Origin: Candidatus Poribacteria bacterium
GTDB lineage: Bacteria > Poribacteria > WGA-4E > WGA-3G
Direction: 5' to 3'
NCBI GenBank assembly: GCA_965197475.1
Contig: CBDANF010000003.1
Location: 1,760,001 to 1,824,000 of the forward strand
DNA length: 64,000 nucleotides
Shown: in pieces, positions 1-14,330 of the stretch
How the letters are laid out: each line of letters begins with the position of its first letter
Numbering within the stretch: position 1 is the first letter of the stretch
Position numbers and translations under genes: made by a program
The notes under the pieces: generated by a model
Told to the model about the DNA's origin: nothing
The model's database searches: none
Seen by the model: only the letters and a program-made list of their open reading frames with translations

Positions 1-326
1 TTGCCCCAGTCACCCACTTTTTTTGTGTGTGACGAACCTTCGCTAAATGTAAAAGCAATCTTACCTAACCCTGACGCGATGATGCTTGCCGTGTAAAAGG
101 CACGATCGGGAGGTTTAGTCGGATTGTATGTTCCTCCGACAAGTGCTCCGTATTGATCTATTTTACGGGTTAAGTGATAATTGGTGCCACTTGCTGGCGA
201 CACAGAGTAATCTGTTCCCCATGTTGTGAAGTATTCTGTCTCGTGAGGCATTGCATGAACATGAACTGCTGTAATAAAAAAGAGTGTAAAACTGAGTGTT
301 ATCGCAACATAAAAATATCTTCTCAT
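1..326 (-). CDS. Secreted variable protein of cassette D (runs off the window edge)
   Basis: Read by eye: ATG at 326 after an AGGAGG RBS. MRRYFYVAITLSFTLFFITAVHVHA is signal-peptide-like. Contains ASGLGKIAFTF...VGDWG, resembling the GxGxxxFT...(I/V)GxW motif of the other cassette proteins. Frame stays open to the edge. Confidence 0.75.
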   Translation of the reverse strand, partial: MRRYFYVAITLSFTLFFITAVHVHAMPHETEYFTTWGTDYSVSPASGTNYHLTRKIDQYGALVGGTYNPTKPPDRAFYTASIIASGLGKIAFTFSEGSSHTKKVGDWG

Positions 327-356
327 TCTAAAATCCTCCTTGTTTTGGTATAGGTT

Positions 357-1163
357 CTATTCTACTACTTCAGGTATAATATCAGATTGGTAAAGTCTCT
401 TTAGACGATGTTCTAAACCGAATTTACGGTAGACTTCTCTAATTGCTTCTTCTCGTTGTCTATGTGCTTCCTCCTCAGAAATAGGATCACCACTATAGAG
501 AGTGCCCGTTATTACAGGAGCAGGACCCCGGGATTTTGCTATTAACACCTTGAGTTCCGCTAATATCCGATCATATTCTGCAGTGTCACCACTACGCCTG
601 GCTTCAACAAGTTTTCTTTGTAAAATTTCGTGTTGTTCCCATTGTTCTGGTGTTGGTGCAAACCCATCATTGACAACTTTATAGAAGGTGGTGGTACTAT
701 TATCGTAGTGTTTTATTACTTCTCCGTTGTCATTACGCATATGCTCCCAGTTGGCACCGATGAGTGGGGGATCAACCCCCCATTCCTTACGATATGCTTC
801 TATTTCTTCTGGCGAGCGGGGTTGCCCAATCAATTCCGGCATCGGCACGAATTCGGGGAGGGTGTCATCCATCCTGTGTGTCGTGTCCGGTGTGCCTTTA
901 TTATCAGGCGAATCGTTTTTATGCCAATGCCCCTCGTGCCAATATCCCATTTCTTTGGTTTCACCGGGCGGCGGCGGCCTATTAGCATCCGTCAGGGCCG
1001 GATCATTGTGTTGCTTTTGACGATCTTCCAAAAGTTTTTTGGTTGCCTCACCTAATACCATTTCCGACTCAGTGTCGGTGTCCTGCGGTATCAGTAAGAA
1101 CACACCAGCAATTCCAATCAGTAGCATGAGGATTGCAAGTCCCCATATCATCTGCTTTTTCAT
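357..1163 (-). CDS. Membrane-anchored cassette protein D (constant N-terminal TM, PPPPG, GYWHEGHWH, GFAPT)
   Basis: 268 aa ORF with AAGGAG RBS. First ~46 aa are near-identical to three paralogs in the array. Confidence 0.85.
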   Translation of the reverse strand: MKKQMIWGLAILMLLIGIAGVFLLIPQDTDTESEMVLGEATKKLLEDRQKQHNDPALTDANRPPPPGETKEMGYWHEGHWHKNDSPDNKGTPDTTHRMDDTLPEFVPMPELIGQPRSPEEIEAYRKEWGVDPPLIGANWEHMRNDNGEVIKHYDNSTTTFYKVVNDGFAPTPEQWEQHEILQRKLVEARRSGDTAEYDRILAELKVLIAKSRGPAPVITGTLYSGDPISEEEAHRQREEAIREVYRKFGLEHRLKRLYQSDIIPEVVE

Positions 1164-1311
1164 AAGGATTCTCCTTATCTTTCATTTGCCTTTATTTCGC
1201 CGTGTCCAGCGAGCAAGGCATTTTGTTTTGTTCCATACAAGCGGGGTTTTCTGTCTGTGTAGCATCAATCATTTTGATTGTGCCAAAGAGCAGTCCGCCA
1301 CCCATAATAAC
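1027..1311. repeat. Conserved cassette linker, copy D (truncated)
   Basis: Near-identical to 2527-2811, 5237-5520 and 8068-8351. Homology ends abruptly at 1311, where CAGGACTTACGCA begins. Confidence 0.85.
1192..1311 (-). pseudogene. 5'-truncated two-Cys small membrane peptide (cassette D)
   Basis: Reads ...IMGGGLLFGTIKMIDATQTENPACMEQNKMPCSLDTAK*. The normal GTG start and RBS are replaced by an IS/MITE-like end. An internal ATG remains. Confidence 0.65.
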
Positions 1312-1324
1312 CAGGACTTACGCA
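1312..1324. mobile_element. Solo copy of the CAGGACTTACGCA terminal inverted repeat
   Basis: Identical to the left TIR of the 9490-9611 element and sits exactly at the break in cassette homology. Confidence 0.6.
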
Positions 1325-1437
1325 ATAATCTACAATTATGTTATACTGTTCTATTATGACTACATTTACACTTTCTAAAAAGAAGCACCACTTATTTTCT
1401 GATTATTGTCAATTTTTGTTAGCGAGTTTCACTAATT

Positions 1438-1767
1438 TTACACAAACCTATTTTGCAAACTATACGGAGAAACCGATCGATTGTCGTTTGCTATCCTGAC
1501 AGGGGCGAACTTGCATTCTGCAAAACCGAGACCTTTGACACCCGCCTCAAGAATAACATTAATCTCCCGATCATCTGTAGACCATTCTTCATTGCCTTCC
1601 TGATCTGTGTATTTGGTCATTACATTCTGATAACTTCTTGAATCGGAAGTAGACCCGATCGTAGGATCTGAGGTAAAACCTATTTCAGCGATTGCATGGT
1701 AAATAAAACAGGCAAAGATTCCAAGAACAAGGCACCCGATTAGCAAAAGGTTTCTATACGTTTTCAT
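1438..1767 (-). pseudogene. 3'-truncated secreted variable protein of cassette C
   Basis: Signal-peptide-like N-terminus, AGGAG RBS and AGVKGLGFAECKF motif, but only 109 aa versus ~457 aa for paralogs. Lacks the Cys-rich tail. Confidence 0.6.
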
Positions 1768-1802
1768 TAAAAACTCCTTGGGAATGTGTATTCTCTTTAT
1801 TG

Positions 1803-2663
1803 TTATCTATATTTTTCGGGGATGAGGTAATCAAACCCCGCTTTTCTATATTCTGCGTAAAGCACTTCTTTTTGTATCCGCATTGCGCGCTGGAGGAGCG
1901 CATCTGCGTGTGCATCTGTTGTTGTTGGGTGAGATAGAGAAACAACAAGATCAGGGATATTTCTATAGCATGCCTGACGGAACGCCTTGAGTTCAGCATT
2001 GATACGTTCCGCTTCAGCAGTCTGTCCCCATCCGTGCGCTTGGGTATACTCACGTTGCATTTCTTTATAACGTTCGTATTCTTCGCGTGTGGGTGCGAAT
2101 CCGATTTCGGTTACAACCCTAAAATAGGGTTCATAGTCTTTGTGTAAAATAGGATTACCGTTTTCATCCAGATCTAGCAACCCCTTTGTGTCTCGGAGAC
2201 GAATAGAGTATCCGGAGGGTGTATCTAGAAATCCGAAATTGTTCAGATCCTGAACCCGGACATTTATTCGTTCTTCTAGAGAAAGTTTCGTCCAGGCTTC
2301 AGGTAAAGTGCCGAAGGATTTCTGGAAAGGGATGTGACGGTCAGGATACGGTTCGTTTGATTGAGGTGCCGTCGGGAGCTCAACAGATGTCTTTCCCGGA
2401 ACGGTTCTGTGCCAACGGTCACCGTCCCAATGTCCTGTTTCGTGGGTTTCACCGGGTGGGGGTGGTCTGATACCAGGCTCAGGCGTGTTTGCTTCCTGCG
2501 GCGAGCCTTTTGGATTAGGTCCGTTCTCCAAAAGCTTTTTGGTTGCCTCACCTAATACCATTTCCGACTCAGTATCAGTATCCCGCGGTATCAGTAAGAA
2601 CACACCAGCAATTCCAATCAGTAGCATGAGGATTGCAAGTCCCCATATCATCTGCTTTTTCAT
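1803..2663 (-). CDS. Membrane-anchored cassette protein C
   Basis: 286 aa with the MKKQMIWGLAILMLLIGIAGVFLL constant N-terminus, GHWDGDRWH and GFAPT. Confidence 0.85.
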   Translation of the reverse strand: MKKQMIWGLAILMLLIGIAGVFLLIPRDTDTESEMVLGEATKKLLENGPNPKGSPQEANTPEPGIRPPPPGETHETGHWDGDRWHRTVPGKTSVELPTAPQSNEPYPDRHIPFQKSFGTLPEAWTKLSLEERINVRVQDLNNFGFLDTPSGYSIRLRDTKGLLDLDENGNPILHKDYEPYFRVVTEIGFAPTREEYERYKEMQREYTQAHGWGQTAEAERINAELKAFRQACYRNIPDLVVSLSHPTTTDAHADALLQRAMRIQKEVLYAEYRKAGFDYLIPEKYR

Positions 2664-2691
2664 AAGGATTCTCCTTATCTTTCATTTGCCT

Positions 2692-2856
2692 TTATTTCAC
2701 TGCGTCCAGCGTGCAAGGCGTTTTGTTTTGTTCCATACAAGCGGGGATTTCTGCCTGCGTAGCATCAATCATCTTGATTGTGCCAAAGAGCAGTCCGCCA
2801 CCCATAATAACAATAAGTGCCACGGTCAGTCCTATTTTTAAAAATTTCGTTTTCAC
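2692..2856 (-). CDS. 54 aa membrane peptide with a Cys-x7-Cys tail (cassette C)
   Basis: GTG start after AGGAGG. MKTKFLKIGLTVALIVIMGGGLLFGTIKMIDATQAEIPACMEQNKTPCTLDAVK. Conserved in all four cassettes and missed by the ORF track (<60 aa). Confidence 0.75.
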   Translation of the reverse strand: MKTKFLKIGLTVALIVIMGGGLLFGTIKMIDATQAEIPACMEQNKTPCTLDAVK

Positions 2857-2962
2857 AAATTATACACCTCCTTTCAAAATTAGTCAAAAAGACCGACCAA
2901 ACGATGACAACTGTAAATCAAAACATCAGTATGAAATACCTTTCATAATTAAAGACACAGTT

Positions 2963-3145
2963 TTAGACCGAAAAGGGTGCATACGATATAAAAAAATGAA
3001 TTTTGTCTAAAGATTTGGTAAAACCACCGCTTGCGCTCCTCACTTCGCGAAAGTTTTTCACACTATCCTGTATCCAAAAGGCGAGAAAGAGAATGCTGCT
3101 GAACAGGAGGAGCGAGACGAGATGTTTGAAAAGTGGGGTTTTCAT
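2963..3145 (-). CDS. ~60 aa hydrophobic small ORF (MKTPLFK...)
   Basis: Paralog at 5676-5864 differs by an in-frame 6-nt indel. One TM-like stretch. No clear RBS. Confidence 0.45.
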   Translation of the reverse strand: MKTPLFKHLVSLLLFSSILFLAFWIQDSVKNFREVRSASGGFTKSLDKIHFFISYAPFSV

Positions 3146-3160
3146 AAAAAACTATAAAGA

Positions 3161-3188
3161 GGGGAACCGGTACTATAACCGGTTCCCT
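3161..3188 (-). terminator. GC-rich hairpin after the secreted gene (terminator-like)
   Basis: GGGAACCGGT-N6-ACCGGTTCCC, followed on the minus strand by a T-rich tract. Same stem with a different loop at 5880-5907. Confidence 0.65.
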
Positions 3189-3216
3189 CTTATGTGTTAA
3201 TACGCAGGTGTAAGGT

Positions 3217-4593
3217 TTAATAAAATTCATCCGAATGGTAGTCATAAGCAGTTGTCTTACGTTCTCCTGAACAGATACCACGTTGCATGAGATAATTCTG
3301 ACATTTCGTGAAGAGTTCACCACAAGGTTCCGTTATCACCGTGCCATCAGCACGCCTGCCTATGATTATACTACGGATGCACGTATAGGTCGCACACGCA
3401 GTGTCTAAAATGCAGATCGGATTGATACATGCTGTGGCGGTCGTGGTACAACCACCATTGGGTGGGGGTGTGTTGCATCCACCATTGGGTGGGGGCGTGT
3501 TACAGCCGCCGTTTGAAGGGGGCGTGTTACAGCCGCCGTTTGAAGGGGGCGTGCCGCCGCCGTTCTGACCACCTAACGCAAGATAGTTGCTGGTGCCTTG
3601 CCCCATGCCAACGCCGCCGCCATTGCCCTGTTGTCCACCACCATCGCCTTGTTGACCGTCGCCATTGCCGCTACCACTACCGCTACTTGGGAACTGGTGG
3701 ATATGCGACGGATCACACCTATAAAAACCTTTTACAGTACAATAAACATTTCCTCCATCCTGGGTGATGTTAACGGGGCAATTAACTTGCCATGCATGTG
3801 CATATGCTTCACTTGGATCAATAATGTGAATGCCGCACTCACCCCGGATTTTATCGTTAATCGTGACGGAGTAACTTCCATTGTAAGGATCCGCATCAAC
3901 GTCACGAGGTATACCTGCCTCCCATTTCCAATATGATGACTCTCCAATAATGAAGCCAATTCCCGCGCCTGAGCTCCCCGCTTGCGCAGTTATTGCGCTC
4001 TGTTCGCTTCCGTATGTCACAATTCTCCGAGATTGTGTCGTGGCTTTACCTGTAGCATATATAGAAACAGTCGTAGGACTAATCTGAGCGGCATCATAAG
4101 CAGGTAGGTTGGGATTAACAACGCCATTAGGTTTTTTTCTACGGAAGGTGTAAACTTCACGTTCCGCTTTTTGTATCGGTTCTGAAGTCCAATGACCGAT
4201 GGAAAAATCCTCTGTCTCTCCGTTGAGCGTAAAAGCAACTTCGCCGTACCCGGTAGCACTGATGGATATCTTTAGGTAGTGATAGTTTTCGGGCTTGTAA
4301 GGTGTCCACGATTCCGAAAGTATAAAAGATACCGGAAGGTTGGGATCGGTGATGGTTCGTTCTCCATGCATATTCAAACCATTCATAGGAGTTGTCTGAA
4401 TTACCGGTTTAGAAGCGTATAAACCACTCGATTCCATATCTGCACGATTTTCTTCCCACCATAGCCGTGCTTCCCATGATTCAATGAAGTCAGGCGGCAT
4501 ATAATAGAGCATGCGGGCTAACGCGGTTGTGCTAATGCAAAAAACTAAAAACACTAAACAGCAAAGAAGAATCATATACTGTTTGTTTTTCAT
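3217..4593 (-). CDS. Secreted variable protein of cassette B with Gly-rich linker and conserved Cys-rich C-terminus
   Basis: Start reassigned to MKNKQYMILLCC (ATG 4593, AGGAGA RBS, just after the upstream stop at 4607). Signal peptide. C-terminus TACINPICILDTACATYTCIR...PCGELFTKCQN is shared with 5937-7307. Confidence 0.85.
   Translation of the reverse strand: MKNKQYMILLCCLVFLVFCISTTALARMLYYMPPDFIESWEARLWWEENRADMESSGLYASKPVIQTTPMNGLNMHGERTITDPNLPVSFILSESWTPYKPENYHYLKISISATGYGEVAFTLNGETEDFSIGHWTSEPIQKAEREVYTFRRKKPNGVVNPNLPAYDAAQISPTTVSIYATGKATTQSRRIVTYGSEQSAITAQAGSSGAGIGFIIGESSYWKWEAGIPRDVDADPYNGSYSVTINDKIRGECGIHIIDPSEAYAHAWQVNCPVNITQDGGNVYCTVKGFYRCDPSHIHQFPSSGSGSGNGDGQQGDGGGQQGNGGGVGMGQGTSNYLALGGQNGGGTPPSNGGCNTPPSNGGCNTPPPNGGCNTPPPNGGCTTTATACINPICILDTACATYTCIRSIIIGRRADGTVITEPCGELFTKCQNYLMQRGICSGERKTTAYDYHSDEFY
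3449..3556. repeat. 27-bp coding tandem repeat, about 4 x (N)TPP(S/P)NGGC
   Basis: Four copies here versus one copy in the paralog near 6170-6195. Confidence 0.85.
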
Positions 4594-4606
4594 GAGTCTA
4601 TCTCCT

Positions 4607-5374
4607 TTAGTAACTACGTTCCCCGTAGAGTTCGTAGAGGTGTTCAACGCCCATGTGCTGATAGAAAGATTGTAACGCTTCGTTATGAAGATTTCTCTCC
4701 TGCTCTCCAGAAATTGGGTCTCCATAATATCTAAAACCAACAGGATCTGGGATTTCACCTTGGGCAGCGTTAACAAGTGATCGAATCTCGTCGTCAAGAC
4801 GTTGCATCTCCGAGATGTTTTCTTTTGATGCAGCGTCTTTCATGGCGGCACGTAGTTGCTTGTAGCGTTTCAATTCTGCGGGTGTCGGTGCAAAATCTAC
4901 TTTTAGATCGTAGCGGGATACAGCAATCGTTCCTCTATAATGCCGATGGACATTTCCGTGATTATCACGAAAGTGTTGATATGAACCGTCTGGCGATGGG
5001 TCTTCTCCCCATTTATCTCGATATTCCGCGAGTTGCTGCTCCCGGAGTGCTTTGACCCTTGCCTTAATTTCTGCTTCAGAAAGTTTAGATAGTGTTTGCG
5101 GAGCTGTGGTGGTATCCGCGGGTGCCGCATGCGGTTCTTCGTGCCAAACGCCATCGTGCCAGTGTCCGTTAGGTGATGCACCGGGCGGTGGTGGTTTGCC
5201 CGCTTCTTGTGCAGACACCTGTTGCTTTGGTCCGTCCTCCAAAGGTTTTTTGGTTGCCTCACCTAATACCAGTTTCGACTCAGTGTCGGTATCCTGCGGC
5301 ATCAGTAAGAAAACACCAGCAATTCCAATCAGTAGCATGAGGATTGCAAGTCCCCATATCATCTGCTTTTTCAT
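4607..5374 (-). CDS. Membrane-anchored cassette protein B
   Basis: 255 aa with the constant N-terminus, NGHWHDGVWH and DFAPT. Confidence 0.85.
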   Translation of the reverse strand: MKKQMIWGLAILMLLIGIAGVFLLMPQDTDTESKLVLGEATKKPLEDGPKQQVSAQEAGKPPPPGASPNGHWHDGVWHEEPHAAPADTTTAPQTLSKLSEAEIKARVKALREQQLAEYRDKWGEDPSPDGSYQHFRDNHGNVHRHYRGTIAVSRYDLKVDFAPTPAELKRYKQLRAAMKDAASKENISEMQRLDDEIRSLVNAAQGEIPDPVGFRYYGDPISGEQERNLHNEALQSFYQHMGVEHLYELYGERSY

Positions 5375-5402
5375 AAGGATTCTCCTTATCTTTCATTTGC
5401 CT

Positions 5403-5570
5403 TTATTTCGCTGCGTCCAGCGTGCAAGGCGTTTTGTTTTGTTCCATACAAGCGGGGATTCCTGCCTGCGTAGCATCAATCATTTTGATTGTGCCAAAGA
5501 ACAGCCCTCCACCCATAAAAACAATCAGTGCCGTGGTCAGTCCTATCTTTCGCCACCGTTGCTTTTTCAC
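5403..5570 (-). CDS. 55 aa two-Cys membrane peptide (cassette B)
   Basis: GTG at 5570 is positioned like the paralog starts. MKKQRWRKIGLTTALIVFMGGGLFFGTIKMIDATQAGIPACMEQNKTPCTLDAAK. Confidence 0.75.
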   Translation of the reverse strand: MKKQRWRKIGLTTALIVFMGGGLFFGTIKMIDATQAGIPACMEQNKTPCTLDAAK

Positions 5571-5675
5571 AATTATATACATCCTTTCAAAATTAGTCAA
5601 AAAGACCGACCAAACGATGACAACTGTAAATCAAAACATCAGTATGAAATACCTTTCATAATTAAAGACACAGTT

Positions 5676-5864
5676 TTAGACCGAAAAGTGTGCATACGAT
5701 ATAAAAAAATGAATTTTGTCTAAAGATTTGGTAAAACTACCGCTTGCGCTCCTCACTTCGCGAAAGTTTTTCACACTATCCTGTATCCGTATCCAAAAGG
5801 CGAGAAATAGGATACTGATGAGCAATAGGAGCGGGAGGATTTGTTTGAAAAGCGGGGTTTTCAT
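5676..5864 (-). CDS. ~62 aa hydrophobic small ORF (MKTPLFK...)
   Basis: Paralog of 2963-3145. Confidence 0.45.
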   Translation of the reverse strand: MKTPLFKQILPLLLLISILFLAFWIRIQDSVKNFREVRSASGSFTKSLDKIHFFISYAHFSV

Positions 5865-5879
5865 AATAAACTATAAAGA

Positions 5880-5907
5880 GGGGAACCGGTTGCGACACCG
5901 GTTCCCC
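5880..5907 (-). terminator. GC-rich hairpin after the secreted gene (terminator-like)
   Basis: GGGGAACCGGT-TGCGAC-ACCGGTTCCCC. Confidence 0.65.
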
Positions 5908-5936
5908 ACTTATGCGTTAATACGCAGGTGTAAGGT

Positions 5937-7307
5937 TTAACGATATAGATCCGAATGATAGTCGCGAAGAGTTGTCAAACGTTCTCCCGAACAGATACCA
6001 CGTTGCATGAGAAGATTCTGACATTTCGTGAAAAGTTCACCACAAGGTCTTGTCACCCACGAACCATCATTTCTCTGGCTTACTTTTATCCTACGGATGC
6101 ACGTATAGGTCGCACACGCAGTGTCTAAAATGCAGATCGGATTGATACATGCTGTGGCGGTCGTGGTGCAACCACCATTTGATGGAGGTGTGCCACCGCC
6201 ACCATTACCCGCGTTCGCTTCAAGCGCATCGGTACACTCACTGCAAGTGCCACTAATTCTCGCGCAGGTCGCGCAGGTTCCACCACCATTGCCGGGGTTC
6301 TGCCCTATGCCACCACCATTGCCTTGTTGACCGCCACCATTGCCTTGTTGCGATCCACTACCAAATTGGTGCGTGTGATACACGCACTGGTAAAACCATT
6401 CCACAGTGCAAGTAAAACCGTTTTCATCTGTTTTGGAGCAACTTTCTTCAAAAACATGATTACCGGGATGCTTAAAACACGGATATGTATCCAGACATCC
6501 GTAGCATACGGTGTAATGCTCGTGGAGGTCATCCCGTAATGTAGACTTGCATATCCAGCATTGCAACTCTTCTGCATAGGACCAGCTCCCCGATTTGCTA
6601 GTGCTATCATGGGCACTAAATGTCCACATATCATCTGAAATCTCCGTTGTTATTGATCTTCCATTAGATAGTGTGACTGTGTGAGAGATACCTGGTTCAA
6701 AGCCAACAGACACTGTAGACTCTGAACCGTATTCCGTTGAGACAGTCACCGAGGAGGTGCCTTTCCATCTGACATTAGCGATTCTGACAGTCCCTGCCCC
6801 CGACCATGTGCCGCCTTTTTTCTCTGGAACATAAGCCCATCGCGACCAATAAAAAACAGCTGAGTCCGATTCGGCATAAGCTGTTCCATCTTCAATACCA
6901 TCATTTACGTTGATGTTTACACCCCAAGATCCGATCTCAGCGACGCGAGAAGCTCCGTTATAGTCAACCAGTGGTTCACCATTGATTGTCGCGGAATCAA
7001 TGGTGAACTGCGCCTCACCATACCCGTATAATGCGGCATTAAGCCTTACCTCTGCAATGCTAGGCATTAGTCCCGGAGTTCTTGTTACGGCATGTTCTCC
7101 ACCATAACTACATGGCGTAGACGTCGCTGCAAAATCTGGTATGCAATGGTATGCATACGTATAGTTTTCTGCCATGTTAGAGTCAACGAAACAGGGAGTA
7201 CCACTGTCATCAAAATTCAAAGTCGTTCTTCCACCGAATGAACTTTGTGGTAATATGAAAAAAATACTAAGCGTTATTGTCAAAAATAGTTTATTAAACA
7301 TTATCAA
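5937..7307 (-). CDS. Secreted variable protein of cassette A with Cys/His-rich segment and conserved Cys-rich C-terminus
   Basis: 456 aa, AGGAG RBS, signal peptide, YGYGEAQFT motif, Ser/Thr-rich middle, several CxxC motifs, Gly-rich linker and the shared C-terminus. Confidence 0.85.
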   Translation of the reverse strand: MIMFNKLFLTITLSIFFILPQSSFGGRTTLNFDDSGTPCFVDSNMAENYTYAYHCIPDFAATSTPCSYGGEHAVTRTPGLMPSIAEVRLNAALYGYGEAQFTIDSATINGEPLVDYNGASRVAEIGSWGVNINVNDGIEDGTAYAESDSAVFYWSRWAYVPEKKGGTWSGAGTVRIANVRWKGTSSVTVSTEYGSESTVSVGFEPGISHTVTLSNGRSITTEISDDMWTFSAHDSTSKSGSWSYAEELQCWICKSTLRDDLHEHYTVCYGCLDTYPCFKHPGNHVFEESCSKTDENGFTCTVEWFYQCVYHTHQFGSGSQQGNGGGQQGNGGGIGQNPGNGGGTCATCARISGTCSECTDALEANAGNGGGGTPPSNGGCTTTATACINPICILDTACATYTCIRRIKVSQRNDGSWVTRPCGELFTKCQNLLMQRGICSGERLTTLRDYHSDLYR

Positions 7308-7315
7308 ATCTCCTT

Positions 7316-8203
7316 TTAGTCTTCGACGATTTCGAGTTCCTGACCATCAATTATAATTGTCCGGGGTTCTGGACGAAGCAAATGCTCTAATCCCATATGT
7401 CTATAGGCTGCACGTAGGATTGGTTTCCTTTTTTCTGCAAGCGAATGTTCAAATGCTTCTGTTCCATATTCACTTGGATCTGCCTTCCCGAATGTAGAAA
7501 AGCTTGGAAGTTTACCCTGCGCGTCAGCAGTAAGGGAATCAATCTCTGCGGAAAGTTGCTGTATGAGGTTCATATCGTTGTCACGCTTTGCTTCCTTTAA
7601 CTTGCGTTGCAGTTCTTGGTACCGCTCATATTGTTGAAGCGTTGGCGCAAAGCCGGTATGCGTAGTTATCCAATATTGCGTGGAATCCGCCTCCATATTT
7701 ATCAAAAAAGGAGCACCGTTATCTAAGACAATTTCTTTATCATCTATCAAGAGATAGTCATAACCTTTAGGTGGAGGTTCTATCCCGAGAGAGAGATAAC
7801 GACGTATCCGCCTCAGATCGGCTCTTTGCTTACTGTTAACAGGAATAGGTTCACCATTCGAACCTATAGAACCATCCCAATACTTGCTGAGTTCAGTTTC
7901 GTTCAAGGGTTGTTCCCGTGGTGTCTGACCATCATTCGGTTTTCTGGAATGCCAGTGGTCACCGTGCCAATATCCTGTTTCTTTTGTTTCGCCAGGGGGC
8001 GGTGGTCTGACACCAGGCTCAGGCGTGTTTACTTCCTGTGGTGAACCCTTTGGCTTAGGTCCGTCTTCCAAAAGTTTTTTGGTTGCATCACCTAATACCA
8101 TTTCCGACTCAGTGTCAGTATCCCGCGGTATCAGTAAGAACACACCCGCAATTCCAATCAGTAGCATGAGGATTGCAAGTCCCCATATCATGTGCTTTTT
8201 CAT
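7316..8203 (-). CDS. Membrane-anchored cassette protein A
   Basis: 295 aa with the constant N-terminus, GYWHGDHWH and GFAPT. Confidence 0.85.
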   Translation of the reverse strand: MKKHMIWGLAILMLLIGIAGVFLLIPRDTDTESEMVLGDATKKLLEDGPKPKGSPQEVNTPEPGVRPPPPGETKETGYWHGDHWHSRKPNDGQTPREQPLNETELSKYWDGSIGSNGEPIPVNSKQRADLRRIRRYLSLGIEPPPKGYDYLLIDDKEIVLDNGAPFLINMEADSTQYWITTHTGFAPTLQQYERYQELQRKLKEAKRDNDMNLIQQLSAEIDSLTADAQGKLPSFSTFGKADPSEYGTEAFEHSLAEKRKPILRAAYRHMGLEHLLRPEPRTIIIDGQELEIVED

Positions 8204-8416
8204 AAGGATTCTCCTTATCTTTCATTTGCCTTTATTTCGCTGCGTCCAGCGTGCAAGGCGGTTTGTTTTGTTCCATACAAGCGGGGATTTCTGCCTGCGT
8301 AGCATCAATCATCTTGATTGTGCCAAACAGCAGTCCGCCACCCATAATAACAATAAGTGCCACGGTCAGTCCTATTTTTAAAAATTTCGTTTTCACATTA
8401 TACACCTCCTTCCAAA
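8068..8416. repeat. Conserved cassette linker, copy A (leading copy)
   Basis: Near-identical to 2527-2878. Confidence 0.85.
8232..8396 (-). CDS. 54 aa two-Cys membrane peptide (cassette A)
   Basis: GTG start after AGGAGG. MKTKFLKIGLTVALIVIMGGGLLFGTIKMIDATQAEIPACMEQNKPPCTLDAAK. Confidence 0.75.
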   Translation of the reverse strand: MKTKFLKIGLTVALIVIMGGGLLFGTIKMIDATQAEIPACMEQNKPPCTLDAAK

Positions 8417-8478
8417 ATTTATCAACTAAAACTAAACAAATGGCAGGGTTGTTTAGTTTTAAGTTTGTTCATTTAGTC

Positions 8479-8509
8479 GAAAGTCGCGACCGGGAGGTCG
8501 CTCCTACAG
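8479..8509 (-). repeat. REP-like GTAG-anchored palindrome
   Basis: Reverse complement CTGTAGGAGCGACCTCCCGGTCGCGACTTTC matches 14241-14271 with one mismatch. Confidence 0.7.
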
Positions 8510-8555
8510 CATAAAATAGGAAGTCGTAATTCGGAAGTCGCTTCTACAGAATAAA

Positions 8556-9203
8556 TCACGTTTGTTTTCCAAGAAGTGATTGAATTATCTCGCTGCCTAC
8601 CATATCGGTGTAATCGTCAGGGTATTTGGCTTTGAGCAGAGCTTTCAACTCTTTTCTACCCCGATTCAACTGAACCTTAACATTACCCTCTTTGATCTTC
8701 AACTGCTTAGCAATTTCTTTGTACGGCATACCTGTGGCACGTAACAGTATTGCATCCTTCTGCGTTTGCGGAAACTGCTCCATCAAACGGCGAACGATTT
8801 CCATATATTCGTTGTGAATCGTGATGCGTTCAGGTTCCAGATACGCAGATGCGGATTTAACATCTGTTTCCACAAATTCGTCTTCAGAAACGCCACCAGC
8901 GGGTTCATAGGACTCACGTTTTTTCTGATTTTCAAACCATCCTGCCTTTTTTCTGTTCGCGATGGTGAACAGCCAAGAATTGAACCTTTCAGGTTTCCGA
9001 ATTGTGCGTATGTTTTCCATCGCTGCAAGGAGCGTATCTTGGACGAGGTCTGCCACATCCTCCGGGTTTCCGATACCTCCATTGTAGAAAAATTGGGCAA
9101 GTCTGCGTCCACATTCTGAACAGAGGGTATCCCATGCTGCTTTGTTACCGGATTGGTAAGATTGGACAAGTTCTGCATCACGCTTAACTGTCTTAAGCTT
9201 CAC
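8556..9203 (-). CDS. ECF-family RNA polymerase sigma factor
   Basis: Region 2 (DVADLVQDTL...FNSWLFTIANR) and region 4 HTH (MPYKEIAKQLKIKEGNVKVQLNRGR). 215 aa. Confidence 0.9.
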   Translation of the reverse strand: MKLKTVKRDAELVQSYQSGNKAAWDTLCSECGRRLAQFFYNGGIGNPEDVADLVQDTLLAAMENIRTIRKPERFNSWLFTIANRKKAGWFENQKKRESYEPAGGVSEDEFVETDVKSASAYLEPERITIHNEYMEIVRRLMEQFPQTQKDAILLRATGMPYKEIAKQLKIKEGNVKVQLNRGRKELKALLKAKYPDDYTDMVGSEIIQSLLGKQT

Positions 9204-9489
9204 CCGATTCGCCTTTTTGGTCTACGGATAACAATTTATGTGTAGAAATTGGGAGAAATGTTACATGTTTTGCTCCCAATTGAACCAAATTCCTGCATAA
9301 AATGCGTAAACTCATGCATTTTATGCGTTTGTATAGTAGGTGCAGAAATCGGGTCAAAAAGTTACAAGTATTTTATTCAACAAAATCCGCCTCGTTCCAA
9401 CTACAGAAATTAGGAAACTTTAACTTTTTGCAAGCGTTATATATTTTGTAAAAAACAAGGGTTTCATGAAGCATTTTTCTTAACATACA

Positions 9490-9611
9490 CAGGACTTACG
9501 CAGCTGGTTCACAAGTCCCCTTGATAAGGGGGATTTAGGGGGTTAAAATACCGAAATAACGACTTTTTAAGTCCAATATTTCCTTTTTCTACTCAATTTG
9601 CGTAAGTCCTG
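9490..9611. mobile_element. MITE-like element (122 bp)
   Basis: Perfect 13-bp TIRs CAGGACTTACGCA...TGCGTAAGTCCTG, flanked by the 5-bp direct repeat ATACA (9485-9489 and 9612-9616). Internal TCCCCTTGATAAGGGGGA hairpin. Confidence 0.85.
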
Positions 9612-9706
9612 ATACATATCAATGTATTTCCAAAAAAATATAACACTGCTCCTACCAAAAAACAGAAACTAAAGCAAACGACTCTCTTGACCGGAGATGC
9701 TTCTGA

Positions 9707-10945
9707 ATGAACCCGAATCAGAAAATTCAAAAACTGACCTTGCTTCTCAATAAACATCATGAATATCGCGAAACCTGCTTGAACCTCATCGCCTCAGAGA
9801 ATACGCCATCACCGTTAGTAGAAGAACTTTTTGACGAAAAGTTGGCACGGCGATACGGAAATTATTCTGGAATTGATCTTTATCAGCGGAACTACAAAGG
9901 CAACCGCCATATTGCTGAAATAGAGGCGTGGACGCAGGAATTAGCAAAAGAATTGTTTAATGCAGCGTTCGTCGATTTCCGTCCGCTCTCTGGAAACGTC
10001 GCAGGAATTGCAGCGACATTCGCGCTGGCAAAACGAACTGATATCGCATTAGAGGTAGATGACGGTCATCGTTATGCTCATAAACTTGCTTCGTCACCAC
10101 TCAAGATAGATTTGCAGTCAATTCCGATTCCATGGGATGGCCTTCGATCAAACATTGATCTCCCTGCAACGCTTGTACTGATTGAGCAACATAAACCGAA
10201 AATCGTCCACATCGGCTCTGGGATATTTCTCTTTCCGCAACCTATTGCGGAGCTAAAAAGCGCGATGCGTCAAGCAAATCCTGAGTCATATCTCATTTAT
10301 GACGCTGCACATGTAATCGGACTCATCGCCGGTGGGCGGTTTCAGTCGCCACTTGCAGAAGGCGCGGATGTTATTATCTCCAGCACACACAAAACCCTCG
10401 CGGGGCCGCAAGGCGGCATGATCTTAACCAACAATAAATCTATTGCAGAACGAATTGGGCAAACGCTCTATCCGTTGCTGATGAGCAATCATCACCTAAG
10501 TCGGTTGCCAGCATTAGCAGGGACATTTGTGGAGTGGATGGTATGTGGTCCGGCACATGCCGATGCGATTGTGGTGAATGCAAAGGCTTTGGGACAGGCA
10601 TTATCGGATCGTGACGTGCCGATGCTCGCTGCTGAACTTGGATTCACGGAAACGCATACATTGATACCAATAGTGGACGCTTTTGGGGATGGAAGCGAAT
10701 TAGCAAATCAATTAGAAGCGTGCCATATTATTGCGGGTGCTGCGAGGCTACCTCCTGAAGTCGGCACCTCTGGATTGCGTCTTGGTGTGCAAGAGGTTAC
10801 CCGATGGGGAATGACACCAGAGGATGCACCGGAAATCGCAGATTGTATCGTTGACGCGCTTTCTGGACAATTACCTGATACAGTCAAACCCAAAGTTGCA
10901 CAATTGGCACAGCGTTTTAATACGATCCAGTTTACGGTAAAATAA
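9707..10945 (+). CDS. Serine hydroxymethyltransferase-like PLP enzyme (divergent GlyA)
   Basis: LNLIASEN, YDAAH, SSTHKTLAGPQGG (PLP lysine) and SGLRLG motifs. Confidence 0.85.
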   Translation: MNPNQKIQKLTLLLNKHHEYRETCLNLIASENTPSPLVEELFDEKLARRYGNYSGIDLYQRNYKGNRHIAEIEAWTQELAKELFNAAFVDFRPLSGNVAGIAATFALAKRTDIALEVDDGHRYAHKLASSPLKIDLQSIPIPWDGLRSNIDLPATLVLIEQHKPKIVHIGSGIFLFPQPIAELKSAMRQANPESYLIYDAAHVIGLIAGGRFQSPLAEGADVIISSTHKTLAGPQGGMILTNNKSIAERIGQTLYPLLMSNHHLSRLPALAGTFVEWMVCGPAHADAIVVNAKALGQALSDRDVPMLAAELGFTETHTLIPIVDAFGDGSELANQLEACHIIAGAARLPPEVGTSGLRLGVQEVTRWGMTPEDAPEIADCIVDALSGQLPDTVKPKVAQLAQRFNTIQFTVK

Positions 10946-14240: not shown

Positions 14241-14271
14241 CTGTAGGAGCGACCTCCTGGTCGCGACTTTC
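14241..14271 (+). repeat. REP-like GTAG-anchored palindrome
   Basis: Copy of 8479-8509. Confidence 0.7.
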
Positions 14272-14330
14272 AGACCGAATTGTGCAAAAAACCGAAACTA
14301 AATAACCCAAAATATAATAGGAGATGAAAA

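Follow-up and report, generated by a model that had tools for sequence, protein, structure and literature searches.

The genome of a sponge symbiont in Candidatus Poribacteria (G000) contains a tandem array of six units, each in the order pep, M, S, where pep is a small membrane peptide with two Cys, M is a membrane-anchored protein, and S is a secreted, Cys-rich protein. The units lie downstream of a gene for an ECF-type sigma factor, the array ends in a gene for a 555-aa STT3-family glycosyltransferase-like protein, and all of these genes are on the minus strand. The initial annotation of the window (the 64-kb stretch of DNA that was analyzed) described a cassette array with this repeat order and at least four units. 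The array is real, but it is larger than was claimed: it extends about 8.4 kb beyond the left edge of the window, where units 5 and 6 and the terminal gene are found (G000:C3:1751560-1760000). With slightly less than even confidence, we interpret the array as a Poribacteria-specific amplified operon that encodes envelope proteins, exported and possibly glycosylated, along with their cognate membrane partners. The features in the window (from ORF calls unless noted otherwise) are as follows.

8556..9203, minus strand: ECF-type sigma-70 family factor, 215 aa, head of the array (Pfam and TIGR02937)
8397..8425, minus strand: promoter-like block TTGATA-N17-TATAAT, which overlaps AGGAGG and the start of pep; further copies at 5572-5600 and 2859-2887
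8232..8396, minus strand: pep1, 54 aa (ORF 8232-8405; start at the second GTG, from the sequence and orthologue starts)
7316..8203, minus strand: M1, 295 aa, bitopic membrane protein
5937..7307, minus strand: S1, 456 aa
5880..5907, minus strand: terminator-like hairpin after S1, GGGGAACCGGT-N6-ACCGGTTCCCC
5676..5864, minus strand: 62-aa ORF, duplication scar, with the N-terminus of the 555-aa STT3-family protein (junction alignment)
5403..5570, minus strand: pep2, about 55 aa (ORF 5403-5600; also junction alignment)
4607..5374, minus strand: M2, 255 aa, core related to M5 (also divergence)
3217..4593, minus strand: S2, 458 aa counted from MKNKQY, N-domain related to S5 (also divergence)
3162..3187, minus strand: hairpin after S2
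2963..3145, minus strand: 60-aa ORF in which the STT3-like 5' fragment occurs a second time (junction alignment)
2692..2856, minus strand: pep3, 54 aa
1803..2663, minus strand: M3, 286 aa
1438..1767, minus strand: S3 remnant, 109 aa, of which the first ~100 codons (1470-1767) derive from S3
1312..1471, plus strand: first 160 nt of a ~1.09-kb insertion sequence, joining truncated S3 to truncated pep4
~1192..1311, minus strand: pep4 remnant without its first ~17 codons (junction alignment)
357..1163, minus strand: M4, 268 aa, core related to M6 (also divergence)
1..326, minus strand: 5' part of S4 (3-326), 476 aa in all, running off the left end of the window to G000:C3:1758896

The initial annotation was right to place an ECF sigma gene at the head of the array: the protein matches Sigma70_r2 (PF04542, 36.3 bits), Sigma70_r4_2 (PF08281, 50 bits), and TIGR02937 (75.9 bits), all above their cut-offs, and with regions 2 and 4 only and 215 aa, it fits group 4 of the sigma-70 family, whose members have about 200 aa. 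At each of its three sites, the promoter-like block shares 11 of 12 positions with the sigma-70 consensus, and the block TTGATAAATTTTGAAAGGAGGTGTATAAT is conserved before pep in two other species as well; it probably acts as a promoter.

Pep1 has a basic N-terminus, a single hydrophobic segment, and a tail with two Cys (EIPACMEQNKPPCTLDAAK). Besides its TM helix and variable alpha/beta domain, M1 has a Pro-rich linker and the motif PPPPGE..GYWHGDHWH. Its AlphaFold2 model (mean pLDDT of 81) did not match any known fold in fold searches. S1 starts with a signal peptide and a beta-rich N-domain, which is variable; Cys/His modules and a Gly/Asn-rich linker follow, and the C-terminal domain, with eight Cys, is constant. 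The structure model of S1 is poor (mean pLDDT of 36.7). Over the whole protein, the paralogues in the array are 40-49% identical to M1 and 37-43% identical to S1. Neither pep, M, nor S belongs to a family in Pfam, NCBIfam, or PADLOC at a significant level. In particular, S1 had no match in any of these libraries; at E ≤ 0.1, Pfam gave nothing for M1 to M4, S1, or S2 (the M proteins covered by the library scans were M1 to M4, and the full-length S proteins covered by Pfam were S1 and S2); and at E ≤ 0.01, PADLOC, the library of known anti-phage defense systems, gave 0 families for the eight proteins scanned. Across 22 distant relatives of S, there was no Pfam match at E ≤ 0.001 except for two sub-threshold rows for Peptidase_M15_3.

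All three families are restricted to this lineage. Searches found 23 matches for pep (with a long paralogue as the query), 76 relatives of M, and, among 1.84 billion representatives, 98 relatives of S, and every named source is Candidatus Poribacteria. Among 5.8 billion proteins, S had 17 matches, including five from G000 itself. The S profile was found in 21 of 36 other genomes from the genus and in none of 24 genomes from three other families of the order.

The two complete units were said to end with a hairpin and an ORF of about 60 aa, which is the case: the hairpins at 5880-5907 and 3162-3187 are followed by ORFs of 60-62 aa. These ORFs arose as copies of the 5' end of the STT3-like gene, which makes them scars of duplication; this origin had been overlooked. 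The hairpins have stems of 10-11 bp and can be aligned across all of the junctions between S and the next gene, including the one that precedes the true STT3-like gene, and about 27 STT3-like codons and the ribosome-binding site accompany the hairpin at every internal junction. In the 62-aa ORF, for instance, the copied ribosome-binding site and the first ~27 codons are followed by unrelated sequence. The pep-M-S part of the operon would have been amplified to six tandem units through unequal crossing-over.

A single-unit operon (sigma factor, pep, M, S, and STT3-like gene) is kept in related species, which had also been overlooked. It is present in two of seven fetched loci (L042 and L043, from the same genus), with sigma orthologues of 57-60% identity at the head. 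More broadly, an M-like gene is upstream of an STT3-like gene in all seven loci, with an S match between them in five. The single-unit operon is probably the ancestral form, from which pep-M-S was amplified in the focal genome. The core types within the array seem to be old, as each is closer to proteins from other Poribacteria than to its array mates: identity is 84% between the M1 core and P0032, 90% between the M2 core and P0031, 79% between the N-domain of S1 and P0009, and 81% between the N-domain of S2 and P0006. Another point missed by the initial annotation is that pep-M(-S) recurs at roughly 7-10 other loci in the genome. Neither a sigma gene nor an STT3 gene is adjacent to these, so neither is an integral part of the module. 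With the focal array included, there are about 8-11 pep-M(-S) loci, and none of the others adjoins a sigma gene.

DNA identity shows a sharp mosaic of constant linkers and variable cores, as had been proposed. In blastn alignments, 2515-3472 and 5226-6192 are 89.4% identical, 2410-2881 and 7950-8419 are 93.4% identical, and 1027-1311 and 2527-2811 are 95.1% identical. The linkers had been placed correctly, and sub-blocks reach 98-100%, but to call them near-identical was somewhat generous overall. At the border in S, about 100 nt are enough for identity to climb from about 51% to 96-100%; at the border in M, it drops from 97-99% to about 57% across about 250 nt. The cores were described as looking unalignable at DNA level by eye, which does not hold for all of them: units 2 and 5 and units 4 and 6 share stretches with 70-100% DNA identity, and all of the M proteins and all of the S proteins are clearly paralogues. 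The two variable halves are indeed adjacent.

Divergence at synonymous sites (by the method of Nei and Gojobori) follows the same division: values for the linkers are 0-0.23, whereas the cores are mostly saturated. In M, dS is 0-0.18 for the first 46 codons, and pS is 0.70-0.80 for the rest, except for M2/M5 (dS of 0.36). In S, dS is 0.02-0.23 for the last 80 codons; for the N-terminal part, 6 of the 10 pairs have reached saturation, and the other four range from 0.79 to 2.48 (S2/S5, 0.79; S4/S6, 1.37; S1/S2, 1.65; S1/S5, 2.48). The core types are the same for M and S, namely (2,5), (4,6), 1, and 3. However, the N-termini of M pair as (1,6) and (2,5), and the C-termini of S pair as (4,5) and (2,6). 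This disagreement, along with tracts of 100% identity among units, indicates that the linkers are probably kept alike by gene conversion or recombination, a signature that the initial annotation had anticipated. Linkage alone could account for the co-variation of the M and S cores.

The short third unit is probably due to a deletion linked to an insertion sequence, which the initial annotation did not notice. P0007, a protein of 510 aa from another assembly, has the same N-terminus as the S3 remnant and continues to full length, and a Logan contig of run X1 departs from the window at 1470. Five further copies of the insertion sequence in G000 are 97.6-99.4% identical to the 160-nt fragment; over ~1.09 kb, four of these are 99.5-99.9% identical to the fifth, and they contain a 352-aa ORF. 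The broken unit is what one would expect if the array were a neutral, partly decaying tandem duplication, or an artifact of assembling repeats, with no special biology. Also, contigs from short reads break at every linker. In run X1, the undeleted form of S3 has a depth of 9.8, as compared to 9.2-12.2 in flanking unique sequence, so the deletion junction in the assembly lacks independent confirmation. Nevertheless, this explanation seems extremely unlikely. The unique cores were recovered with 0 mismatches in contigs of two runs, and their types are kept in other Poribacteria. The five full M-S pairs have open frames and retain conserved motifs as well as signal or anchor segments, and in every comparison with a measurable dS, dN is the lower of the two (dN and dS, respectively, of 0.175 and 0.358 for M2/M5, 0.307 and 0.791 for S2/S5, and 0.326 and 1.374 for S4/S6). 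Contigs from a sponge metatranscriptome (run X4) match S1, S2, S4, and pep3 with 0-1 mismatches; among the pieces listed and the depth bins for this run, none were on the sigma gene, M1, or M2. This is a weak hint that the array is expressed; DNA in the library may be the source of these contigs.

The complex of one cognate pair (M1 residues 95-295 with S1 residues 25-320) was predicted in three runs, with 3 controls. The ipSAE was 0.75, 0.00, and 0.74 (median of 0.74), and the best control reached 0.13; 116 of 157 solved complexes but just 2 of 215 mismatched pairs reach the 0.74 mark. Across the M1-S1 runs, contact agreement was at least 0% and the pLDDT of the partners was at least 37 (38-49 for S1 within the complex). 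In the predicted interface, a strand of M1 (235-243) pairs with S1 150-157. These models support binding between the variable parts of M1 and S1; the proposed partner relationship holds up to this extent, for this cognate pair and with one run at 0.00.

Predicted binding of adjacent, co-varying proteins, discrete core types common to different strains, and constant flanks prone to recombination are also what a polymorphic toxin-immunity array would have. S would be a secreted toxin with a variable, toxic N-domain, M would be its cognate, membrane-anchored immunity protein, and the array would be a repertoire for competition between strains of Poribacteria. Rhs, CDI cdiA-CT/cdiI orphans, and Neisseria maf are arrays of this kind, and they resemble the pep-M-S array in their co-varying adjacent pairs, in constant flanks that might provide homology for recombination, and in types common to strains. 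The initial annotation, which offered this option, also stated that Rhs, CDI, and Maf domains are absent, and Pfam found none. Nor did Pfam, NCBIfam, or PADLOC identify a toxin, toxin-tip, Rhs/YD, filamentous-hemagglutinin, hemagglutinin-repeat, MafB, or other known domain, and secretion-system genes were not seen in the array. In described polymorphic toxins, the delivery part is N-terminal and constant, the tip is C-terminal and variable, and the immunity gene lies directly downstream. In contrast, the variable part of S is N-terminal, directly behind the Sec signal, and M is upstream. Every unit is a full gene set that has start codons, a signal peptide, and a promoter-like block of its own, unlike the 5'-truncated cdiA-CT/cdiI orphans, and there is no orphan cassette. 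The conserved STT3-like linkage also argues against toxins, as do the large Cys/His modules and low-complexity linkers of S, which are typical of extracellular structural proteins. With no indication of a toxin or immunity protein, we consider this explanation unlikely. Thus, the initial interpretation is partly supported: its anatomy, adjacency, and recombination signature stand, but toxin-immunity does not.

The order of sigma factor, bitopic membrane protein, and exported protein, which is conserved in two other species, recalls FecI-FecR-FecA. In such trans-envelope signaling, S would sense a cue from outside, M would relay it across the periplasm, and pep would hold the sigma factor, which would switch on the operon. 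The predicted contact between the outer domain of M and the N-terminal part of S would fit as well, as FecR and FecA are joined through strand pairing. However, M has ~4 cytoplasmic residues and pep has ~7, which leaves no room for an anti-sigma domain, and Pfam found no such domain beside the sigma gene and no FecR, DUF4880, Plug, or TonB_dep_Rec match. S has no signature of a TonB-dependent receptor or other outer-membrane barrel. Furthermore, one sigma factor would be common to six sensor sets, and the module mostly occurs without one. Signaling of this type seems quite improbable.

We return to exported envelope proteins and the terminal gene. The 555-aa protein matches the membrane domain of STT3 (PF02516, 64.2 bits against a cut-off of 24.5, residues 11-302), and its best NCBIfam match is the archaeosortase-associated STT3 family TIGR04154 (E = 6e-17, below the cut-off for that family). 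When it is aligned to mammalian STT3A, EFDPYFNY pairs with ENDGYFYY and GSYDNE pairs with GFGDRD. In oligosaccharyltransferases, the WWDYG motif of the C-terminal domain binds the sequon; the STT3-like protein reads HWRFG at this position (aligned to yeast STT3, 2lgz, and STT3A). A gene for a CDP-alcohol phosphatidyltransferase adjoins the STT3-like gene, and L042 contains an ORF that resembles a family-2 glycosyltransferase by eye. AglB, from archaeal S-layer glycoprotein systems, is an STT3 homologue, and the bacterial PglB systems are comparable. As in those systems, an exported protein with low-complexity Thr/Pro/Gly-rich linkers adjoins an STT3-family enzyme, but S lacks PGF-CTERM or a transmembrane anchor. 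Given HWRFG and just 1-6 N-X-S/T sequons per S, glycosylation of S is a guess from gene linkage.

The array also resembles the surface-protein families opa, msp2/p44, and vls, which are homogenized by gene conversion and have conserved flanks, hypervariable centers, and mosaic identity tracts. Unlike these, it has no single expression site fed by silent, promoterless partial cassettes (as for pilE/pilS or vlsE): in each unit, the ORFs are complete and have start codons along with signal or anchor segments, and units 1-3 also have the promoter-like block. Also, the variable block covers two genes whose products are predicted to bind each other.

We propose that pep is a small peptide, either in the membrane or exported, whose tail has two Cys, that M is anchored in the membrane with a variable outer domain that would bind the neighboring S, and that S is Sec-exported and Cys/His-rich, with its variable N-terminal domain as the target. 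Gene conversion would keep alike the C-terminal linker and 8-Cys domain of S, the intergenic region (including the hairpin and promoter-like block), pep, and the anchor of M, while each M-core/S-N-domain block would be an old type that is inherited together. The linked STT3-like enzyme, which is non-canonical, may act on the constant C-terminal handle of S. The most likely role of the array is to provide several alternative proteins for the envelope or surface, with a separate membrane partner that would hold or mature each one. Overall, the array suggests that this symbiont has a repertoire of interchangeable exported proteins, every one paired with a membrane partner of its own.

The array is larger than the initial annotation had proposed. 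Its genes extend to the left of the window: a whole-genome search with one linker (the 3' end of S through pep to the first ~46 codons of M) found further copies there, and the ORF listing for C3:1740000-1770000 has six genes each for M and S, one of the latter being a 109-aa remnant, S3. (C3 and C2 are contigs of the source genome, G000, which has 5.7 Mb in three contigs; we number the genes by their unit.) The repeats described earlier were confirmed by blastn. Every gene of the array is on the minus strand, and the order pep, M, S repeats downstream of the sigma factor gene. Pep has ~54 amino acids, with a single hydrophobic segment and a two-Cys tail; M has 255-310 amino acids and a membrane anchor at the N-terminus; and S, which is secreted and rich in Cys and His, has 432-482 amino acids. 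The S proteins share a C-terminal handle, which consists of NGGC-N/T-TPP repeats and an 8-Cys domain. In protein database searches, all of the related proteins that carried a source name were from Candidatus Poribacteria. The main features besides the triplets are:

Window 8556-9203, minus strand: ECF-type sigma factor, which heads the array, with the pep-M-S triplets downstream
Window 1312-1471, plus strand: insertion-sequence fragment, the first 160 nt of a ~1.09 kb element
G000:C3:1751560-1753227, minus strand, left of the window: STT3-like gene (555 aa, PF02516 match), the last gene of the array

Comparing the whole array to itself gave a mosaic of blocks at 89-97% identity. In a sliding window with unit 2 as the reference, identity was 97-100% across pep and the start of M, dropped to ~55% inside ~250 nt, and returned to 96-100% inside ~100 nt at the S linker. 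Both comparisons bear out the division into constant and variable parts that had been noticed earlier. Some tracts are 100% identical, namely, the first 300 nt of units 2 and 5 and unit positions 2001-2200 of units 2 and 6. Synonymous divergence, computed by the Nei-Gojobori method, follows the same borders:

Synonymous divergence between units, by segment
M, first 46 codons: dS 0-0.18
M, remainder: pS 0.70-0.80, except for M2/M5 (dS 0.36)
S, last 80 codons: dS 0.02-0.23
S, N-terminal part: saturated in 6 of 10 pairs; S2/S5 0.79, S4/S6 1.37, S1/S2 1.65, S1/S5 2.48

The conservation of the constant parts extends to synonymous sites and to non-coding and scar sequence, so protein-level selection cannot account for it, and gene conversion or recent recombination is required. 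The groupings of the segments also conflict: the N-termini of M pair as (1,6) and (2,5) and the C-termini of S as (4,5) and (2,6), while the cores of M and S alike pair as (2,5) and (4,6).

The junctions between units suggest how the array grew. When all of the junctions are aligned, the stop codon of S is followed by a hairpin, GGGGAACCGGT-N6-ACCGGTTCCCC, and then by the STT3-like gene's first ~27 codons with their ribosome-binding site. After these codons come a breakpoint, ~170 nt of other sequence, and the block before pep. At the last junction, between S6 and the genuine STT3-like gene, the same hairpin and start run on as the gene. The ORFs of ~60 amino acids that the initial annotation had listed as components of the units are therefore duplication scars, that is, copies of the 5' end of the STT3-like gene. 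From the layout of these junctions, the repeat unit arose by unequal crossing-over; one breakpoint fell within the STT3-like gene, and its counterpart lay some tens of bases upstream of pep.

Unit 3 is short, and an insertion sequence lies at the break: the fragment at 1312-1471 joins codon 100 of S3 to codon ~18 of pep4. Five further copies of the element in the genome are 97.6-99.4% identical to this fragment, and an alignment of four of them with the fifth spans ~1.09 kb at 99.5-99.9% identity:

C3:1971039: insertion-sequence copy
C3:2306928: insertion-sequence copy
C3:2857518, minus strand: insertion-sequence copy
C3:75219, minus strand: insertion-sequence copy
C2:1074789: insertion-sequence copy

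The element is young and contains a 352-aa transposase-like ORF. A jump of the element into pep4 and a later deletion next to it explain why the 3' part of S3, one linker with its hairpin and scar, and the start of pep4 are missing. A full-length S3 is known from another assembly (P0007, 510 aa). In sequencing run X1, a contig of 1173 nt fits P0007 exactly, with 417 nt on 1470-1886 of the window, ~700 nt off the window, and 56 nt that are S1-like, and this undeleted form has about the same depth as the flanks. The form with the deletion is thus a strain variant or else is unconfirmed.

In other species of the genus, orthologues of the STT3-like protein are 64-81% identical. Seven such loci from related species were set against the proteins that the window encodes. 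An M-like gene is upstream of the STT3-like gene in all seven, and in five of them there is an S match between the two. Two of the loci, L042 and L043, have the whole set just once, in the order sigma factor (57-60% identity), pep, M, S, STT3-like gene. The last of these lies at:

L042:13306-15351: STT3-like orthologue
L043:8739-10778: STT3-like orthologue

The single unit is the ancestral state. Of 36 other genomes in the genus, a profile of S matched 21, compared with 0 of 24 genomes from three other families of the order, and a search of JGI metagenomes with an alignment (A2) found no relative.

The cores themselves are old types, as each has nearer relatives in other Poribacteria assemblies than among the units of the array:

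Closest relatives elsewhere of the variable parts
M1 core: P0032, 84% identity
M2 core: P0031, 90% identity
M3 core: P0034, 63% identity
M4 and M6 cores: P0028, 66% and 69% identity, respectively
S1 N-domain: P0009, 79% identity
S2 N-domain: P0006, 81% identity

Within the array, whole-protein identity to M1 is 40-49% for the M paralogues, and identity to S1 is 37-43% for the S paralogues. S1-like N-domains elsewhere (P0008 and P0009) carry quite different C-terminal domains. The pairing of M and S types seems to hold in other assemblies too: in locus L038, from a related species, an M2-like gene adjoins an S2-like gene, and equal lengths of the longest contig give only a hint that P0026 and P0006, as well as P0033 and P0008, may each sit on one contig.

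The cognate pair of unit 1 was modelled as a complex (M1 95-295 and S1 25-320, with an alignment for each). The ipSAE was 0.75, 0.00, and 0.74 in three runs, and the best of three controls reached 0.13; the benchmark given for the score mark is that it is reached by 116 of 157 solved complexes and by 2 of 215 mismatched pairs. Across the runs, contact agreement was at least 0% and the partner pLDDT was at least 37. The confident contacts pair a strand of M1 (235-243) with S1 150-157. For this one cognate pair, the model supports predicted binding of M1 to S1. Alone, M1 has a confident predicted fold (pLDDT 81), with a transmembrane helix, a Pro-rich linker that is disordered, a small hairpin at GYWHGDHWH, and an alpha/beta domain; the S4 model is poor (pLDDT 36.7). 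Foldseek found no fold match for the M1 model in the PDB (best E of 1.1) or BFVD (best E of 0.096), and the best hit from a wide VIA-align search (Z of 6.2) covers only a helical hairpin; the lack of a match is no proof that the modelled fold is new.

By sequence as well, pep, M, and S had nothing significant in Pfam, NCBIfam, or PADLOC; the weak rows (cwf21, PirA, GH49N, and FadJ) are all far under the cutoffs. S and M had no credible match among PDB sequence profiles, and S1 and M1 had no usable match in the ESM Atlas. None of seven paralogous large secreted proteins from this genome and three orthologues exceeded a Pfam cutoff, and 22 distant relatives of S gave just two sub-threshold rows for Peptidase_M15_3. 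We also considered pep as an anti-sigma factor, which we dropped as it has no cytoplasmic domain, and as a RiPP precursor, which we dropped as modification enzymes are absent nearby.

The terminal gene belongs to the STT3 family (PF02516 at 64.2 bits versus a cutoff of 24.5), and a CDP-alcohol phosphatidyltransferase gene comes next after it. Aligned to mammalian STT3A and the C-terminal domain of yeast STT3, the protein keeps both acidic motifs and has HWRFG at the position of their WWDYG. A phmmer search of the PDB with the L042 orthologue gave 0 matches. STT3-like paralogues are numerous in the genus: a single genome can have up to 24 matches.

A sigma-70-like site (11/12) precedes pep in units 1-3, and the block TTGATAAATTTTGAAAGGAGGTGTATAAT before pep is kept in two other species. 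This putative promoter block overlaps the ribosome-binding site, 0-3 nt from the start of pep. Scanning for AAC-N15-18-CGT did not find a shared ECF promoter motif; the one match, within the STT3 fragment, looks like chance. Upstream of the sigma factor (9204-9460, minus strand), TGTAACyTTTTTG-N5-GATTTCTGCACCTACTATACA and an inverted repeat, GGGAG..CTCCC, are kept in three species, which makes this a candidate regulatory region. REP-like palindromic elements lie at ~9509-9611 and ~8476-8515, and the genome has 16 occurrences of the 21-mer CTTGATAAGGGGGATTTAGGG; summed contig depth in the 9397-9700 bin was 553 to ~25,000 across four runs. L043 has a similar REP-like element between sigma and pep, and window 8476-8509 matches 14241-14275 in inverted orientation. 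The flank on the sigma side (9707-10945, plus strand) encodes a 412-aa ORF that looks, by eye, like serine hydroxymethyltransferase.

Contigs from sequencing runs X1 and X3 reproduce the unique cores with 0 mismatches and end at the linkers, and among the contigs listed, none spans a linker. Thus, short reads confirm the cores, not the order of the units. In X4, a sponge metatranscriptome, contigs match S1, S2, S4, and pep3 with 0-1 mismatches; among the pieces listed and the depth bins, none falls on sigma, M1, or M2, and missing RNA cover does not imply silence. This is a weak hint that S is expressed, and the X4 contigs could also be DNA carry-over. One ambiguous X4 joint (3370>6091) falls within a shared stretch of 77 nt.

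A profile search of every ORF in the genome placed pep-M-S or pep-M at ~7-10 additional loci, none of which has a neighbouring sigma factor or STT3-like gene. Examples are:

C2:1188206-1194501: pep-M(-S), two units
C3:579685-589807: pep-M(-S)
C3:2830957-2833875: pep-M(-S)
C3:3631020-3634909: pep-M(-S)
C3:3668541-3672312: pep-M(-S)

Pep is longer at these loci (~150 aa, with three hydrophobic segments) and has the same tail end, PC..PC.LDAAK. The N-terminal module of M (the anchor and PPPPGE..GHWHGDxWH) is also fused to other C-terminal parts, one of which has sub-threshold TPR matches. Some of the loci, including the first, second, and last examples, encode other large secreted Cys-rich proteins with no Pfam domain, and two are tandem duplications themselves. 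Another membrane-anchored family (~240-260 aa, all ending in ..GIDPYTFLDLPK) forms a tandem array at C2:1453000-1463000, with M-like genes interleaved.

Overall, the anatomy fits a lineage-specific module of an exported protein and its cognate membrane partner, which was multiplied with its flanks kept recombination-competent. Among functional readings, we rank first a set of alternative proteins of the envelope or surface, which the linked STT3-like enzyme may glycosylate via their common C-terminal handle. A toxin-immunity system ranks second, and FecIRA-like signalling ranks third. A bolder version, which we consider unlikely, is that pep-M-S is a new class of co-diversifying pair of exported protein and membrane receptor, found only in sponge-symbiotic Poribacteria; that the constant flanks are a cassette-exchange device by which strains swap whole cognate types of M core and S N-domain for recognition by host, kin, or phage; and that the S C-terminal handle is the dedicated substrate of a non-canonical STT3 (HWRFG for WWDYG) with a new acceptor specificity. 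Judging by the result listings of a full-text literature search, no published account of such a Poribacteria locus was found.

Poribacteria are uncultured, widespread symbionts of sponges, and to our knowledge, little is understood about their self-presentation to the host, phages, and one another. This locus, with three orphan, lineage-restricted protein families, is a concrete and testable candidate for it. It offers a predicted binding pair whose variable halves are both inherited as one block, clear evidence of recombination that keeps the flanks exchangeable, and a conserved linkage to a divergent bacterial homologue of STT3. It also documents both growth of an array, by unequal crossing-over with a breakpoint in the downstream gene, and shrinkage, through an insertion-sequence-linked deletion. 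If the S proteins are its substrates, then the STT3-like protein would be a rare case among bacterial STT3-type transferases, having an unusual acceptor family dedicated to it.
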